A stretch of DNA of 44,868 bases from an uncultured Candidatus Saccharibacteria bacterium (GTDB lineage: Bacteria; Patescibacteriota; Minisyncoccia; Phycocordibacterales; Phycocordibacteraceae): positions 1 through 44,868 of the forward strand of contig CAZQGQ010000004.1 in assembly GCA_964593365.1 (NCBI GenBank). The letters are read 5' to 3'. Of the stretch, positions 1,157 to 6,062 are shown piece after piece. Position 1 is the stretch's first letter. Every line of letters begins with the position of its first letter. The translations under genes and the position numbers were made by a program. The notes below the pieces were generated by a model that saw only the letters and a program-made list of their open reading frames with translations, had not been told where the DNA came from and searched no databases.

Positions 1157-1651
1157 ATGGAAGTCATCACTCCCGTTAAGGTAGAGGAGCGCCAAAAGAT
1201 CGGTATAAAGCCCGGGGATACTGTCCGTGTCCACCAGAAGATCGTTGAAAAGGGAAAGACCCGCACGCAGGTCTTCGAAGGACTTGTCCTTGCAACCAAG
1301 CACGGCTCTGAGGCAGGTGCTACGTTCACGGTCCGTGCGACCCTCTCTGGCATTGGCGTTGAACGTATCTTCCCCCTCTATGCTCCGTTCATCGAGAAGA
1401 TTGAGATCGTAAAGCGCTCGAAAGTCCGCCGCGCAAAGCTCTACTTCATCCGCGATAAGGTTGCCCGCGAGGTACGCCGCCAGCTCCGCAACATGCGCAT
1501 GATGAACGTCTCAACCGACGACTTTGCCGAAAAGGAAGTGCCTGCAGAGGCTCCTGAGGAAGTCGTCGCAGAAGAAGTCGTTGAAACTCCGGTAGTAGCA
1601 GAAGAGGCAGCAGCTCCTGCAGAGGAGACCGAAGAAGTGAAGGCTGCCTAG
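1157..1651 (+). CDS. rplS: 50S ribosomal protein L19 with acidic C-terminal extension
   Basis: PGDTVRVH, QVFEG, GVERIFP, KVRRAKLYFIR; ATG at 1157 preferred over 1136. Confidence 0.95.
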   Translation: MEVITPVKVEERQKIGIKPGDTVRVHQKIVEKGKTRTQVFEGLVLATKHGSEAGATFTVRATLSGIGVERIFPLYAPFIEKIEIVKRSKVRRAKLYFIRDKVAREVRRQLRNMRMMNVSTDDFAEKEVPAEAPEEVVAEEVVETPVVAEEAAAPAEETEEVKAA

Positions 1652-1693
1652 TTTGTAAAACGCTCGATCGGTCGGTATAGTACGCACACACCT

Positions 1694-1778
1694 GCCCAGG
1701 TGTTGAAATTGGTAGACAAGCTACCTTGAGGTGGTAGTGCCGAAAGGCATGGAGGTTCGAGTCCTCTCCTGGGCACCA
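1694..1778 (+). tRNA. tRNA-Leu(GAG)
   Basis: Acceptor GCCCAGG/CCTGGGC-A-CCA, anticodon arm CTACC-TTGAGGT-GGTAG, long variable arm, GGTTCGAGTCC. Confidence 0.96.
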
Positions 1779-1788
1779 TTTGGCGAAA

Positions 1789-1831
1789 GAAAATAAGAGG
1801 ACCCCACGCGACATCACGAAGCGTAGGGCCC
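1789..1831 (-). terminator. Terminal hairpin/terminator of the Trp unit
   Basis: Minus strand GGGCCCTACGC-TTCGTGATGTC-GCGTGGGGTCC followed by TCTTATTTT. Confidence 0.7.
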
Positions 1832-1866
1832 AATAGTTATTGCCTGTTCAGGCTAGTGCCAACTGC

Positions 1867-1875
1867 TTACCACAT
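1867..1875 (-). CDS. Two-codon minigene Met-Trp-stop
   Basis: Minus strand AAGGGAG-7 nt-ATG TGG TAA GC, downstream of a Trp attenuator; positional twin of ATG CAC TAA GC at 2749-2757. Confidence 0.65.
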   Translation of the reverse strand: MW

Positions 1876-1916
1876 AGTTGGTCTCCCTTCATAAGGCTGG
1901 TCTGTAAGGTAGACGC

Positions 1917-1995
1917 AAAACCCCTCCGTAAGGAGGGGGTTGGCTTTATGCGTGGTTCAGGCATCAAGACAATCCTCTCCTTAGGAGGGGATGGT
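1917..1995 (-). promoter_or_regulatory. Transcription attenuator (Trp-responsive)
   Basis: Segment 1 1995-1984, segment 2 1980-1961, segment 3 1951-1932 (16 of 20 positions pair with segment 2); terminator AACCCCCTCC-TTAC-GGAGGGGTTTT 1941-1917. Confidence 0.8.
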
Positions 1996-2052
1996 CCAGG
2001 CCCACATGCCAAAACGCGCGGCAGAAATGGAAGCGGTGGCGTTTCGATTCAT
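1981..2052 (-). CDS. Trp leader peptide MNRNATASISAARFGMWAWTIPS (23 aa)
   Basis: ATG 7 nt after a -10 box; TGG-GCC-TGG directly before attenuator segment 1; stop codon directly before segment 2. Confidence 0.75.
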   Translation of the reverse strand: MNRNATASISAARFGMWAWTIPS

Positions 2053-2059
2053 TAGTACT

Positions 2060-2087
2060 ACCCTAGCAATTCCAGTAGAGTCGTCAA
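2060..2087 (-). promoter_or_regulatory. Sigma70-type promoter of the Trp unit
   Basis: TTGACG-16 nt-TAGGGT with extended TGn. Confidence 0.65.
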
Positions 2088-2124
2088 GCCACAGCGAATA
2101 GCCCAAAACTGCTATAGTTTGCGT

Positions 2125-2682
2125 ATGACGAGCAGCATTCAAGACAAGATAGCCCTCTTCGAGCGTGTATTGGCTGAAGTCCCCGAACTTCGCTATGCAG
2201 GCGATCCCATCCTTCGAACGCCAGCAAAAAGCGTGGCCTTGGAAGAAGGTCTTTTGATAGGGAAGCGGCTGGAAGAGGTACTGCTTCGCTTCCGTGCGAT
2301 TACTGGCGTTGGACGAGGGCTTGCAGCTCCGCAAATTGGAGAAGGTGCTTCTGTTTTTATTACGTACGTAGATGACACGGTTGAGACATTCATCAATCCC
2401 CGCATCGTTTCGACATCTGACACGAACAATATGTACAAAGAGCTTTGCATGAGCGTTGGCATTCTTGCAGCTGAAGTTGAGCGGGCAGAGGAAATACAGA
2501 TGGAGTGGACGGACGCTGAAGGGAACTCGCGCTCTGGGACTTTCAGTGGTTTTCTTGCGCGCCTCTATCAGCACGAGGAAGCCCATTTGCAGGGTCGTTT
2601 GAATATAGACGAGGCTACGCCAGGGGGAATTGAGTTTGCCACCTTTGACCCGCTCCAGGAAAAATTGCGACCGGTGAAATAA
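2125..2682 (+). CDS. def: Peptide deformylase (divergent motifs)
   Basis: GRGLAAPQIG, FINPRI, ELCMS (canonical EGCLS), QHEEAHLQG (HExxH); ATG 6 nt after TG-C-TATAGT. Confidence 0.88.
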   Translation: MTSSIQDKIALFERVLAEVPELRYAGDPILRTPAKSVALEEGLLIGKRLEEVLLRFRAITGVGRGLAAPQIGEGASVFITYVDDTVETFINPRIVSTSDTNNMYKELCMSVGILAAEVERAEEIQMEWTDAEGNSRSGTFSGFLARLYQHEEAHLQGRLNIDEATPGGIEFATFDPLQEKLRPVK

Positions 2683-2723
2683 AAGAAGCCCACGCAACGA
2701 CTAACGAAGTCGCGTGGGCTTCT
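2679..2723 (-). terminator. Terminal hairpin/terminator of the His unit
   Basis: Minus strand AGAAGCCCACGC...GCGTGGGCTTCT followed by TTTATTT; may also terminate def on the plus strand. Confidence 0.75.
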
Positions 2724-2748
2724 GGCTCATTGAGCTTGGCGGTTTAGC

Positions 2749-2757
2749 TTAGTGCAT
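2749..2757 (-). CDS. Two-codon minigene Met-His-stop
   Basis: Minus strand GGAGG-5 nt-ATG CAC TAA GC, downstream of a His attenuator. Confidence 0.65.
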   Translation of the reverse strand: MH

Positions 2758-2803
2758 TGTCGCCTCCACTTTCGGGCCTTCCGTTTTATGGATTAACGAA
2801 TTG

Positions 2804-2898
2804 AACCCCTCGTCACTTGCGTGAGGAGGGGGCTATCTTCATGACACTCATCAAGACAATCCTCTCCGCGCGCGTGACGCCGGATGGTGCAGTTTATG
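2804..2898 (-). promoter_or_regulatory. Transcription attenuator (His-responsive) overlapping the 3' end of the repressor gene
   Basis: His codons at 2898-2896 and 2889-2884; segment 2 2867-2848 (19 nt identical to the Trp unit); segment 3 2844-2825; hairpin 2834-2804 with a GCAA loop and a weak U tract. Confidence 0.72.
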
Positions 2899-3162
2899 CA
2901 TCATCATTTTGTAACCGCCTTCTCCTTCCTGGAGCCACTTCGATACGCGAGCAACGGTCGTTGAGCTAAAGCCCGTTTTCTTCTCGATCTCGGTGTAGGG
3001 AACGTGCTTTGAAAGGAGCTCTGCCGTCTGGAAGCGCTTAGCGAACTCCGTGATCTCGCCTTCGGTCATAAGGTCGCGCAAAAAGCGTCGAACCTCATCC
3101 GGAGTTTCAAGGGCGAGCAGGGACTCGATAAGGCGGCGGTTTTCTTTCAAGGTCCAATTCAT
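2851..3162 (-). CDS. YerC/YecD (HisR), TrpR-like DNA-binding repressor with His-rich C-terminus
   Basis: FLRDLMTEGE...YTEIEKKTGFSSTTVARVSKWL..G.GGY matches the YerC/TrpR-related pattern; tail MMMHKLHHPASRARRGLS. Confidence 0.88.
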   Translation of the reverse strand: MNWTLKENRRLIESLLALETPDEVRRFLRDLMTEGEITEFAKRFQTAELLSKHVPYTEIEKKTGFSSTTVARVSKWLQEGEGGYKMMMHKLHHPASRARRGLS

Positions 3163-3169
3163 CAAGAGG

Positions 3170-3199
3170 CACTTTACTAGGGTAAAGTGAGCGTGTCAA
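3170..3199 (-). promoter_or_regulatory. Promoter TTGACA-17-TAAAGT with overlapping 20-bp palindromic operator
   Basis: -35 at 3199-3194, -10 at 3176-3171; palindrome CACTTTAC-TAGG-GTAAAGTG at 3170-3189. Confidence 0.85.
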
Positions 3200-3244
3200 G
3201 CTGTCTTCCGGACCCTCTGTATTCGTGATATAACCACAACACAT

Positions 3245-3321
3245 GGCGGCCTTAGCTCAGCTGGTAGAGCTCCGGTTTGTGGTACCGGCGGTCGTGGGTT
3301 CGAGCCCCACAGGTCGCCCCA
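3245..3321 (+). tRNA. tRNA-His(GTG)
   Basis: G-1 followed by GCGGCCT acceptor pairing with AGGTCGC-C-CCA; anticodon arm CCGGT-TTGTGGT-ACCGG. Confidence 0.96.
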
Positions 3322-3322
3322 T

Positions 3323-3706
3323 ATGAAATCATTCATAGAAGAGTTCCGAACATTCGCGCTTCGCGGCAACGCGCTAGATCTTGCCGTGGGCGTTGTCATA
3401 GGTGCCGCCTTCAACAGCATCGTCACTTCGCTTGTCACGAACGTACTCACTCCTCCCTTGGGGCTCATGATCGGGGGCGTTAATTTCAGTGAGCTTGTCA
3501 TACCTATCGGCGGAACAGCGAGCATCCAGTACGGGCTCTTCGTGCAGGCGATCGTGAGCTTCGTCATCACCGCGTTCGCTCTCTTCCTCCTCATCAAGCT
3601 CATCAATAAGTTCCTTCGCAAAGCTAATACCGAGCCGCAGGCGCCCGCCCCTAAGTCCCCAGAGCTTCTGGTGCTTGAGGAGATCCGGGACGAGCTGAAG
3701 AAATAA
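3323..3706 (+). CDS. mscL: Large-conductance mechanosensitive channel
   Basis: EFRTFALRGNALDLAVGVVIGAAF, YGLF, LEEIRDEL. Confidence 0.96.
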   Translation: MKSFIEEFRTFALRGNALDLAVGVVIGAAFNSIVTSLVTNVLTPPLGLMIGGVNFSELVIPIGGTASIQYGLFVQAIVSFVITAFALFLLIKLINKFLRKANTEPQAPAPKSPELLVLEEIRDELKK

Positions 3707-3724
3707 CGAGGTATACTTTTCTCT

Positions 3725-4384
3725 ATGAAAACACTTGCCGCAGGCGTCGTCCTTATTCTCTTGCTCGGGTTCGCCGGATTCTTTTATCGAAACGTTGCGG
3801 AGCAGACCGCTACTCCCCAGATGGCCTGCACGCTTGAGGCGAAGATCTGCCCAGACGGCTCCTCCGTCGGGCGCACAGGTCCTTCGTGCGAGTTTGCTGC
3901 CTGCCCGCTTCCTGGCGTTGAACTGCAAGATGCAGGCCTGGCGTTCGTTATCCCAGCTGACTACGCTCCAGACAACGCTGCTCCTGGCGCAGACCTAGCT
4001 ACCCTCGCTTCGTTCGTAAAGCCTTCGCTTACCGGAGGCGTGCCCCACGTGATTAGCGTTAGCCGCTACCAGATTCCGGAAGGGGAGACGGCAGAGGATG
4101 TCATGCTCGCACATACTCGCTACCAGCCAGCTGATATGCAGGCGGAAGACTTTGAACGCTTCGAGACCGTTCTCATTAACGGAAAGGAATTTAAAGGCAC
4201 CGTCATCGAGCGTTTTGAAGCGCAGATCCAGAGCGCGTACTACCTTGCACGCGGAGCAGACGTCCTTCGTTTTGATGTTATCGAGCACGACGTCGTTGAT
4301 TGGATGGAGCCAGCGCTTGAAGTCAGCAAGCTTCCCGAGCACGCGGCTTTCCTGAAGATGCTCGGAACGATCGAGCTTCGCTAG
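3725..4384 (+). CDS. Membrane-anchored exported protein with Cys-rich motif
   Basis: N-terminal hydrophobic helix, then CTLEAKICPDGSSVGRTGPSCEFAACP. Confidence 0.7.
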   Translation: MKTLAAGVVLILLLGFAGFFYRNVAEQTATPQMACTLEAKICPDGSSVGRTGPSCEFAACPLPGVELQDAGLAFVIPADYAPDNAAPGADLATLASFVKPSLTGGVPHVISVSRYQIPEGETAEDVMLAHTRYQPADMQAEDFERFETVLINGKEFKGTVIERFEAQIQSAYYLARGADVLRFDVIEHDVVDWMEPALEVSKLPEHAAFLKMLGTIELR

Positions 4385-5143
4385 TTACTCAAGCACAAGA
4401 AGTGCGACCATCACGAGAAGCCCAACGCCAAGGGCAAGAAGCTGAAGCGCCGAGTGGCGGACACGCGTCGTTTTATGCAGTTCAGGCACCAGGTCGGCAA
4501 GTGCGATGTAGATAAAGTTTCCAGCTGCGAATGCCGCGATAAGCGGGATGAGCATCTCGTGTATTCCGGCGAGCATGAAGGCAAGCCCGAGCCCTACGAA
4601 AGCAGTGAGTCCCGATAGGAAGTTCACGAAGAGCGCCTTTGCGCGCGAGTAGCCTGCGTGCAGCAAGAGTCCGAAGTCGCCGATTTCCTGCGGGATCTCA
4701 TGGAGCGCGATTGCAAGCGTGGTTGCGATACCGACTTCGGTCGAGACCATGAATGCGGCCCCGATAGCCATACCGTCGATAAGATTGTGCATGCCGTCAG
4801 AGACAAGCACGAGGTGTCCGACCGGATGGATCTGCGCGTGTTCGGGAGAGAACTCCTCATCGCCGTGGCTGTGGTGCCAGTGGAGGAATTTCTCAAGCAC
4901 GAAGAAGCTGAAGATTCCCGCAAGGATAAGAAGCGACACCAGAAGAGGATTGCCGGTCTCCTCAAACGCTTCTGGGATGAGGTGGATGAATGCGTCTCCA
5001 AGCAGGGCGCCTGCTGCAAGCGAGATGAGGAGGAAAAGTATCCGGCGAAGCAAGTTCTCCTTGAGAGAAAGGGTTGCGATACCGATAAGCGATACGAGGC
5101 TTATGGCAAGAACGGCGAGGGCGCCTGCTGCAAAGGGAGTCAT
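4385..5143 (-). CDS. ZIP-family zinc/metal transporter
   Basis: HLIPEA, His-rich loop HWHHSH, DGMHNLIDG, LHEIPQEIGDF. Confidence 0.93.
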   Translation of the reverse strand: MTPFAAGALAVLAISLVSLIGIATLSLKENLLRRILFLLISLAAGALLGDAFIHLIPEAFEETGNPLLVSLLILAGIFSFFVLEKFLHWHHSHGDEEFSPEHAQIHPVGHLVLVSDGMHNLIDGMAIGAAFMVSTEVGIATTLAIALHEIPQEIGDFGLLLHAGYSRAKALFVNFLSGLTAFVGLGLAFMLAGIHEMLIPLIAAFAAGNFIYIALADLVPELHKTTRVRHSALQLLALGVGLLVMVALLVLE

Positions 5144-5249: not shown

Positions 5250-6062
5250 ATGAATGAGACTTGGCAGGAAACAATCGTGCGTATCAGCAAGCCAGTGCGC
5301 TACAGCGCAGCAGCGGCGCTCTCGCTTCTCGCACTCTTCCTCTTGGTGCAGACCTTGGACGCATTGACGGACTTCGGACGCTCTGACAATCCGTACATGA
5401 ACACGATTACGGTTGAAGGAACCGGCAAGGCCGCTTCAATCCCGAATCTTGCTGTCGTCTCGTTCTCAGTGACTGAGCGCGGAACAACTGTTGCTGAAGC
5501 TCAGACCAAGGCAACGGGCAAGACCGACGCAGCGCTCGCTGCAGTTGAAGGAATGGGCATTGAAGAAAAGGACGTGAAGACGACTGCATACAACGTGTAT
5601 CCGCAGTACGAGAACATCCAGCCCTGCTACGGCATGGTCTGCCCTGAGATCGCTCGCAACCCGCGCATCATCGGCTACGAAGTCTCGCAGACGGTAGAGG
5701 TAAAGGTCCGCGACACCGCGAAGGCAGGAGACGTGCTTCAGGCACTCGGTACGTTGAATGTGCAGAACATCTCAGGACCGAACTTCACGGTTGATGAGGA
5801 TGACGCTATTCGAAACGCCGCTCGCGAAGAGGCAATCGAACAGGCTAAAGCAAAGGCAAAGGTGCTCGCCGACGAGCTTGGCGTTCGACTTGGAAAGGTC
5901 ATCTCGTTCTACGAGAACAACCAGTACCCGTATTACGAAGAGGGCTTCAACGGGGCTAAGGGAGGTATGGCGATGGACGCTATGGCGCAATCAGCTCCTC
6001 GTCTTCCAGCAGGAGAGCAGGAGACCGAGATCTCTGTCTCGATCACCTACGAGATCCGCTAA
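5250..6062 (+). CDS. SIMPL/DUF541 domain protein
   Basis: ITVEGTGKA..PNLA, AKAKAKVLADELGVRLG, VSITYEI; N-terminal membrane anchor. Confidence 0.88.
   Translation: MNETWQETIVRISKPVRYSAAAALSLLALFLLVQTLDALTDFGRSDNPYMNTITVEGTGKAASIPNLAVVSFSVTERGTTVAEAQTKATGKTDAALAAVEGMGIEEKDVKTTAYNVYPQYENIQPCYGMVCPEIARNPRIIGYEVSQTVEVKVRDTAKAGDVLQALGTLNVQNISGPNFTVDEDDAIRNAAREEAIEQAKAKAKVLADELGVRLGKVISFYENNQYPYYEEGFNGAKGGMAMDAMAQSAPRLPAGEQETEISVSITYEIR

Follow-up and report, generated by a model that had tools for sequence, protein, structure and literature searches.

What can an amino-acid-sensing attenuator be for if no gene stands behind it? This question is raised by a stretch of 44,868 nucleotides (the window) from an uncultured Candidatus Saccharibacteria bacterium, namely positions 1 to 44,868 of contig CAZQGQ010000004.1 (assembly GCA_964593365.1), which is contig 4 in a genome (G000) of 716 kb that is 99.7% complete. 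Its minus strand carries two compact units with a common plan: a promoter or promoter-like site, a leader open reading frame (ORF) that ends in or near Trp codons (unit 1) or His codons (unit 2), a shared 19-mer, alternative antiterminator and terminator (T1) stems, and a second terminator (T2). Between T1 and T2 of each unit there is nothing except a two-codon ORF (the mini-ORF), ATG TGG TAA in unit 1 and ATG CAC TAA in unit 2. An earlier reading of this DNA (the original prediction) had described this layout and proposed that the units control only dipeptide ORFs; all elements listed by it were found again, read in sequence and checked, and in this genome the two-codon ORFs are indeed the only ORFs behind the switches.

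Judged from their sequence and from their relatives, both units are almost certainly ribosome-mediated transcription attenuators. The sections below examine their parts, the predicted switch, the family to which they belong, and the competing explanations for the mini-ORFs.

Organisation of the two units

The 19-mer common to both units, GGAGAGGATTGTCTTGATG, is present in exactly two copies in the window, both on the minus strand (1980 to 1962 and 2867 to 2849; minus-strand motifs are given in reading direction), against a chance expectation of 0.01. No further copy occurs in the 716-kb genome.

Unit 1 starts at a promoter-like site (2060–2087, minus strand) made up of a −35 box TTGACG (2087 to 2082), a 16-nt spacer and a −10 box TAGGGT (2065 to 2060). 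The leader ATG lies 7 nt past the −10 box, and the mRNA would be leaderless or nearly so; relatives have TATACT-type −10 boxes 7–8 nt ahead of the leader ATG. The leader ORF (1981–2052, minus strand; 23 codons) encodes MNRNATASISAARFGMWAWTIPS and contains Trp codons at 2004 to 2002 and 1998 to 1996. These form a W-A-W sensor, with 15 nt between the last TGG and the 19-mer; homologous leaders in relatives carry W-Y-W or Y-W-F instead. The final codons of the leader constitute region 1, which pairs with the 19-mer. The antiterminator (1932–1980) follows, with the 19-mer as its 5′ arm, a loop, and a 3′ arm at 1950 to 1932. T1 (1914–1939) is formed by CCCCCTCC and GGAGGGG and is followed by TTTTGCG; its stem is listed by the terminator scan at 1938 to 1921. 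The mini-ORF (1865–1887) consists of a Shine–Dalgarno (SD) sequence GGGAGA (1887 to 1882) and ATG TGG TAA (1875 to 1867), with GC directly after the stop. Beyond it lie a small hairpin, GCCTG-AA-CAGGC (1842–1853), and T2 (1785–1831), whose stem spans 1831 to 1799 and whose U tract (1798 to 1785) abuts the 3′ end of a tRNA-Leu gene.

Unit 2 has a better promoter (3171–3199, minus strand): a −35 box TTGACA (3199 to 3194), 17 nt, and a −10 box TAAAGT (3176 to 3171), in all 10 of 12 consensus positions. The original prediction had assigned sigma70 promoters to both units. That of unit 2 is listed by the promoter scan, but that of unit 1 falls below the threshold of the scan and is weak by consensus. 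The antiterminator of unit 2 (2825–2867) again comprises the 19-mer (2867 to 2849), a loop and a 3′ arm (2843 to 2825). Its T1 (2795–2832; stem 2832 to 2806) combines a good stem with a weak, U-poor tail (UUCAAUUCGUU) and is absent from the list of the terminator scan. The mini-ORF (2747–2767) has an SD sequence GGAGG (2767 to 2763), 5 nt, then ATG CAC TAA (2757 to 2749) and GC; it is followed by a small hairpin, GCTCA-A-TGAGC (2725–2735), which like its counterpart in unit 1 was read in the sequence and folded, and by T2 (2676–2723), whose U tract overlaps the stop codon of a convergent deformylase gene.

A repressor gene as a predicted leader

The leader of unit 2 is of a different kind. As originally predicted, it ends in the sensor codons H-K-L-H-H; the ORF, however, is no short leader peptide but the complete gene of a 104-aa repressor, hisR (2851–3165, minus strand), with His codons at 2898 to 2896 and 2889 to 2884. 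Its product is a TrpR-like protein of the YerC/YecD family, matching PF01371 (Trp_repressor) at 6e-20 and the NCBIfam model TIGR02531 (YerC/YecD) with 65.2 bits against a cut-off of 42.2. The ORF ends in HKLHHPASRARRGLS; 16 nt lie between the last CAT and the 19-mer, and the last five codons of the gene (RGLS and the stop) are encoded by the 19-mer itself.

Over the −10 box of unit 2 lies a 20-bp palindrome, CACTTTACTAGGGTAAAGTG (3170–3189), which has no mismatch to the HisR consensus cacTTTAnnnnnnTAAAgtg given in PMC9413887. The Bacillus subtilis protein YerC is described in that paper as the histidine repressor HisR, with histidine as corepressor. The perfect operator and the Pfam and NCBIfam memberships together uphold the HisR-like repressor of the original prediction. 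The position of the operator over the promoter of hisR indicates autoregulation. It is the sole site in the genome with 0 or 1 mismatch to the consensus, so that no his regulon is visible; in the related loci L194, L205 and L173, one-mismatch sites likewise stand just before hisR.

The arrangement recurs. The hisR genes of eight relatives have two to four C-terminal His codons, an RGLS-type tail within the 19-mer and the same switch; five of these are G232, G275, L194, L204 and L205, and the other three (G363, G321 and G399) belong to three other families of the order. On this comparative basis, the last codons of a complete repressor gene are predicted to act as the sensor of an attenuator. 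HisR with bound histidine would repress unit 2 at the promoter. The unit would thus respond to two signals, free His by way of the operator and charged tRNA-His by way of the ribosome. Such a fusion, in which hisR would serve as its own attenuator leader, is unusual and would provide two layers of control.

Predicted mode of action

In a long imperfect hairpin, the 19-mer makes up the 5′ arm and the 3′ arm ends in CCCCCTCC, which is at the same time the 5′ arm of the G+C-rich terminator. From this structure and from comparison, the following switch is deduced. A ribosome stalled at the sensor codons (the Trp codons in unit 1, the His codons at the C-terminal end of hisR in unit 2) would cover region 1 and leave the 19-mer free to pair with its 3′ partner. 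The antiterminator so formed would consume the 5′ arm of T1, and RNA polymerase would continue. Once a ribosome has arrived at the stop codon, which abuts the 19-mer or lies inside it, it would melt the antiterminator and allow T1 to form.

In the alignment of the antiterminator helix (11 distinct sequences), 93% of the cells hold standard pairs, against at most 62% when the partner is slid; covariation is modest, the score being reached by 9 of 500 shuffles. The calculated energies in unit 1 are −14.8 kcal/mol for 1:2 pairing, −16.5 for the antiterminator (2:3) and −16.8 for the terminator (3:4); in unit 2, the antiterminator has −19.6 and T1 −17.6 kcal/mol. With the ribosome's footprint masked, unit 1 folds into T1 when the ribosome is at the stop codon and into the antiterminator when it is at the second Trp codon. 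The masked fold of unit 2 is ambiguous, in that the minimum-energy fold keeps T1 in spite of the stalled ribosome.

A family of attenuators in Saccharibacteria

The attenuator reading derives its strength from the relatives. In a pattern search of 259 genomes of the family (one genome per species; up to 3 mismatches allowed), the 19-mer was found with at most 2 mismatches in 9 of the 258 others. A covariance model built from 12 copies (R1) matches 44 of 151 family genomes at E≤0.1; the best 16 new matches were read, and 13 of them consist of a short ORF and the switch, the remaining three being ordinary terminators. At the level of the order, R1 matches 10 of 151 genomes at E≤0.001, G000 and G256 included, and five of the eight new matches are real. 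All 13 metagenome contigs from the pattern scan carry the element. The scan of genome contigs gave mostly chance matches among those listed, together with five loci that have the element, four of which duplicate genomes already in the set. BLAST with the whole units against 61 relatives found G027 only. After de-duplication, 38 elements are known beyond the two of the window; some are close kin and hence not independent.

These elements fall into four types. Fourteen have leaders with Trp or other aromatic residues (FWYWF, YWF, WFW, YFFYF), six have short His leaders (HH, HHH), eight are of the hisR-tail type described above, and ten have branched-chain, Thr or Val leaders (AIIVVSILL, LILIV, IVVVLTLI, TTTTTTTT, VVVVVV and others). 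The codon run keeps its fixed distance to the 19-mer while its amino acid changes between W/Y/F, H, I/L/V, T and V. Ribosome-mediated attenuation predicts such a combination of an unchanged RNA switch and interchangeable codon runs. A covariance-model search of this kind had been suggested with the original prediction: the switch recurs in Saccharibacteria, leaders for other amino acids do occur, and the attenuator reading is borne out. On the evidence of these matches, the predicted attenuator family is widespread in Saccharibacteria.

It is also probably new, both to Rfam and to the literature searched. Over positions 1400–3800, Rfam at E≤10 returned only tRNAs and noise below threshold; the sole leader family among these was Leu_leader, on a T2 hairpin, with 21 bits against a gathering score of 50. 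None of the Rfam families matched the loci of 12 relatives, and the T-box model (RF00230) has no match in the window region or in the whole genome. A literature search combining Saccharibacteria, candidate phyla radiation or Patescibacteria with attenuation, leader peptide or T-box did not find the attenuator family described.

The genome also has an attenuator outside this family. A whole-genome screen of G000 for short ORFs with amino-acid runs ahead of terminators yielded 104 candidates, among them a Thr leader, MQLQTTTTTAL, directly before thrS on contig 2 (locus L254, 141900–144600) with an antiterminator and a terminator of its own. Within this locus, the promoter is TTGACA/TATACT, the leader occupies 202–237, the terminator 272–290 and thrS 323–2074, and the product of the latter scores 642 bits on TIGR00418. 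R1 does not detect this leader, which therefore represents a different sequence family; its position before thrS implies that at least one synthetase gene of this genome is controlled by leader-peptide attenuation.

Two weak matches of R1 on contig 7 of G000 were rejected as copies of the attenuator, since they represent an unrelated repeated element. This element, of about 120 nt, occupies 2889–3008 and 4552–4671 of the 5.3-kb contig, beside the ends of ORFs on the opposite strand, and contains two G+C-rich hairpins of the type CCCC..CCCTTTAGGGATGGGG.

Genes behind the switch

In all 38 relatives' elements, a longer ORF follows the switch, and some of these ORFs have a recognisable function. 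In L066, hisS (362 bits on TIGR00442) begins about 215 nt past the switch, and a divergent tRNA-His gene lies upstream, as in the window. In G301, the gene behind the switch is hisE (PRA-PH, 4.7e-19). A conserved family of about 290–317 aa, without a Pfam match, follows hisR in three of the eight relatives with the hisR form of the switch (L194, G275 and L204; E 6e-60 and 1e-44); its members are located at 5890–6762 in L194, 598–1455 (minus strand) in L170 and 311–1261 in L204, and a look-up in a protein atlas gave a weak ATP-grasp-like lead only. In L194, a gene for a HAD hydrolase comes after that of the ~300-aa protein. In L205, the slot after hisR is taken by a GNAT protein and then an M20 peptidase. 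These genes (~300-aa, HAD, GNAT and M20) are candidates for His salvage under the control of HisR and an attenuator.

The Trp-type elements precede small Cys-rich, Zn-ribbon-like ORFs of 55–80 aa and share a single conserved locus, next to a pyrH-like gene in convergent orientation (L004, 1622–1822; L040, L041, L043, L044, L197, L200, L202 and L203). Judged by eye, the small proteins form at least three mutually unrelated groups, and the protein-atlas look-up gave no lead for the Zn-ribbon protein. The locus has the appearance of a slot for hypervariable small proteins that is controlled by aromatic amino acids. In two Trp-type loci, L024 (G110) and L042 (G217), the first terminator is separated from the small ORF behind it by an additional insert of about 100 nt; this insert contains a hairpin and a 37-codon ORF, about 90–215 nt past the 19-mer.

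If these assignments are right, Saccharibacteria, which are tiny amino-acid auxotrophs, possess a large family of classical attenuators whose sensor codons cover Trp/aromatic, His, branched-chain, Thr and Val residues at the least; under its control would stand genes for synthetases, for candidate enzymes of His salvage and for small, hypervariable Zn-ribbon proteins. Such a family would provide a handle on how these bacteria read the amino-acid supply of their hosts.

The situation in the window differs. None of 10 downstream proteins from relatives has a homologue in this genome (tblastn), and no leader stands before its own hisS, trpS or tyrS. As the switches of the relatives precede genes that are absent here, the two units are cargo-less. 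The expectation that Trp and His pathways would be missing agrees with the gene content: TrpA was not found in the genome, and HisA/HisF have no match above the Pfam cut-off.

Stumps of lost genes or matched mini-ORFs?

Tentatively, we read the units as orphaned attenuators and the two-codon ORFs as stumps of lost downstream genes. In the relatives, read-through would express the downstream gene; in this genome, it would add only about 130 nt before ending at T2. The SD sequences and ATGs of the mini-ORFs sit where the downstream ORFs of relatives begin, with the ATGs at offsets of 105 (unit 1) and 110 (unit 2) from the start of the 19-mer, compared with 102–116 for the first downstream ORFs of relatives. 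The SD of unit 1 (GGGAGAC, 5 nt, ATG) is that of Trp-type relatives, and the first ORFs of G157, L195 and G346 likewise begin with ATG CAC, those of G157 and L195 at offset 110. At the position of the mini-ORF start, no relative has an ATG-X-stop, and a matched ATG-X-stop is present in none of the 38 relatives' elements, in which ATG-X-stop of any kind, in any frame, occurs three times in 38 × 245 nt; the proposed tracking of the leader amino acid by the minigene codon thus fails outside this genome. The original prediction had itself named attenuators leading into genes in relatives as a sign of deletion relics, and this is largely what is seen, the genes being hisS, hisE, the ~300-aa family, GNAT, Zn-ribbon or unnamed ORFs.

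Several observations weigh against stumps. When the 3′ domains are shuffled, ATG-TGG-stop turns up in 0.17% of cases for unit 1 and ATG-CAY-stop in 0.34% for unit 2, which gives a joint chance of about 6e-6 for a codon match in both units; genome-wide, such 9-mers number 8 and 10 in 1.43 Mb, both strands counted. None of the first ORFs of 13 Trp-type relatives starts with ATG TGG, so that the Trp match cannot be inherited. Both mini-ORFs have kept strong SD sequences at ideal spacing, and promoter, operator, an intact hisR, the leader ORF and both terminators are all preserved. Lastly, the homology of the terminal hairpins, noted in the original prediction, is confirmed: the two T2 hairpins agree in 36 of 54 aligned columns, a score equalled by 0 of 300 shuffles, and a 10-mer common to both has no other site in the genome. 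The hairpins are old, diverged paralogs, and the short, cargo-less form may therefore have been kept for long; an old cargo-less form fits debris poorly in a 0.7-Mb genome. The idea that T2 is what remains of the terminator behind a typical Trp-type cargo gene was rejected, because those terminators differ, being of the CCGGCAGCG type.

The same observations lend substance to a second explanation, which is hardly less probable than the first, though also below even odds: a matched-codon mini-ORF selected as the output of the attenuator, after or instead of a downstream gene. Its strong SD would load ribosomes on an AUG followed by the starved codon, and the initiation complex would wait with an empty A site. 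This could act as a trap at the hungry codon, from which RelA would be supplied with deacylated tRNA, as a means of tRNA sequestration in the manner of lambda bar, or as a source of fMet-Trp and fMet-His. Besides the improbable double match, which is found with an SD in both units here and in none of the 38 others, this explanation is favoured by the common format of the mini-ORFs (GGGAGA or GGAGG at 7 or 5 nt from the ATG, a TAA stop, GC after it), by the intact upstream control, including the perfect and singular HisR operator, and by the divergence of the T2 paralogs, which makes a fresh deletion an unsuitable origin of the short form. The parts required for the proposed effects exist: a RelA/SpoT homologue and Pth are encoded once each, and tRNA-Trp and tRNA-His have a single gene apiece. 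Among the 14 His-type relatives, three have His at codon 2 of the first ORF, in two unrelated protein families; between the first ORFs of G346 and G157, both starting M-H, no relationship was detected (E 13). Moreover, two-codon minigenes that have regulatory effects or sequester tRNA are known (PMC8708949 and PMC2490762).

Against selection of the mini-ORFs stands their restriction to one genome. The matched form recurs neither in the 38 elements nor in the 258 other family genomes, where BLAST with the 3′ domains found only short matches at chance level (7 and 11 genomes matched at E≤0.05 per genome, against about 13 expected). When the two 3′ domains are aligned freely, the best alignment (score 51.5) shifts the mini-ORFs by 16 nt and does not place them opposite each other; an alignment anchored on the ATGs scores 36.5. 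Furthermore, ATG CAC may be a legacy of a lost ORF like that of G157, and T1 of unit 2 is a weak terminator. Orphaned attenuators hence remain our tentative reading, but the codon match makes the hungry-codon alternative worth a test at the bench. If true, scarcity of Trp or His would park more ribosomes on the hungry codon, and the units would be a feed-forward device to the stringent response or to tRNA sequestration in an auxotrophic epibiont, with two gates on the His unit, namely the HisR operator and the terminal His codons of hisR.

It is improbable that the read-through RNA itself is the product, with an untranslated mini-ORF, either as a trans-acting small RNA, comparable to the rnTrpL that derives from a Trp attenuator, or as a T-box-like display of the codon to an anticodon. 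ATG-X-TAA does lie in a hairpin loop in the minimum-energy folds of both units, but the stems of these hairpins differ (six against four pairs) and have no 3′-domain homologues from which covariation could be drawn; no T-box or other Rfam family matches, a conserved bulge that could bind a tRNA acceptor end is lacking, and the strong SD sequences argue for translation. That the units are not regulatory at all, being ordinary terminators with chance short ORFs or plus-strand leaders of def, is most improbable: the hairpins could fold from both strands (R1 gives a score, though with fewer bits, for the reverse strand as well) and the promoter of unit 1 is poor, but the comparative data contradict this idea, since leader ORFs are conserved, the amino-acid run varies over a constant switch at fixed spacing from the 19-mer, and the U tracts of the units lie on the minus strand.

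Neighbouring genes

The gene order along the plus strand is a pseudouridine synthase gene, rplS, tRNA-Leu, unit 1 (minus strand), def, unit 2 (minus strand), tRNA-His and mscL. The tRNA-Leu(GAG) gene (1694–1778, plus strand) is convergent with unit 1, and tRNA-His(GTG) (3246–3321, plus strand), the sole tRNA-His gene in the genome, is divergent from hisR. A divergent tRNA-His gene about 60–80 nt upstream of the promoter of a His-sensing unit is seen both in the window (3246–3321) and in L066 (3306–3379).

The original prediction had connected the deformylase gene between the units with the system. This gene, def2 (2125–2682, plus strand), is not the housekeeping def, which lies on contig 2 (82863–83351), but a second, divergent peptide deformylase gene that scores below the NCBIfam def cut-offs. 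It has an ortholog in only one of the 258 other family genomes, G272 (63% identity), and no attenuator units lie beside that ortholog; the adjacency in the window is hence treated as a coincidence, and def2 is not counted as a part of the switch. In both genomes, a tRNA-Leu gene is found near def2.

Comparison with known systems

Attenuation of the trp and his operons of E. coli makes use of leader codons, of alternative 1:2, 2:3 and 3:4 pairing and of an intrinsic terminator, with read-through on starvation. The units in the window share with these enterobacterial leaders the ORF with sensor codons, the four pairing regions and, with a U-poor tail in unit 2, the intrinsic terminator. They differ from them in lacking an Rfam match, in their leaderless or nearly leaderless mRNAs, in a host without the pathways and in the absence of a downstream gene; in unit 2, the leader is in addition a complete 104-aa repressor gene. 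A further known form is the attenuation of aminoacyl-tRNA synthetase genes, of the E. coli pheST type. Its likeness here is found in the leaders before hisS (L066) and thrS (contig 2 of this genome), whereas the two units of the window precede no synthetase gene.

The logic of E. coli leader-peptide attenuation is also summarised in PMC9413887, where HisR is presented as used in some lineages and His attenuators, as the alternative, in others; its text contains no mention of Saccharibacteria, Patescibacteria or TM7. With the HisR described there, the protein in the window has in common the family and a 20-bp consensus operator over its own promoter. The difference is that here the repressor gene itself carries the sensor codons, and that no gene for histidine biosynthesis or transport follows.

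T-box riboswitches also sense the charging of the tRNA for one amino acid by way of a codon, and often control synthetase genes. None was matched here, and translated leader ORFs explain the specificity.

As to the mini-ORFs, lambda bar is a classical two-codon minigene. It shares with the mini-ORFs of the window, as does mg2 of axe-txe, an SD sequence, an AUG, one sense codon and a stop; neither is known to have an amino-acid attenuator above it or a codon matched to a sensor. Minigenes are reported to sequester the cognate tRNA as peptidyl-tRNA (PMC2490762), and the axe-txe mg2 minigene to stabilise an mRNA in cis (PMC8708949). No same-strand cistron lies downstream of the mini-ORFs in the window. 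Roles of an attenuator beyond its operon are on record for Sinorhizobium, in the form of the attenuator RNA rnTrpL and the leader peptide peTrpL (PMC6614838 and PMC7298713); unlike the units described here, that attenuator still precedes trpE(G). None of the known systems compared joins an amino-acid attenuator with a minigene of matched codon. The units of the window represent either regulatory parts that have outlived their target genes or the first attenuator with a hungry-codon mini-ORF as its output.

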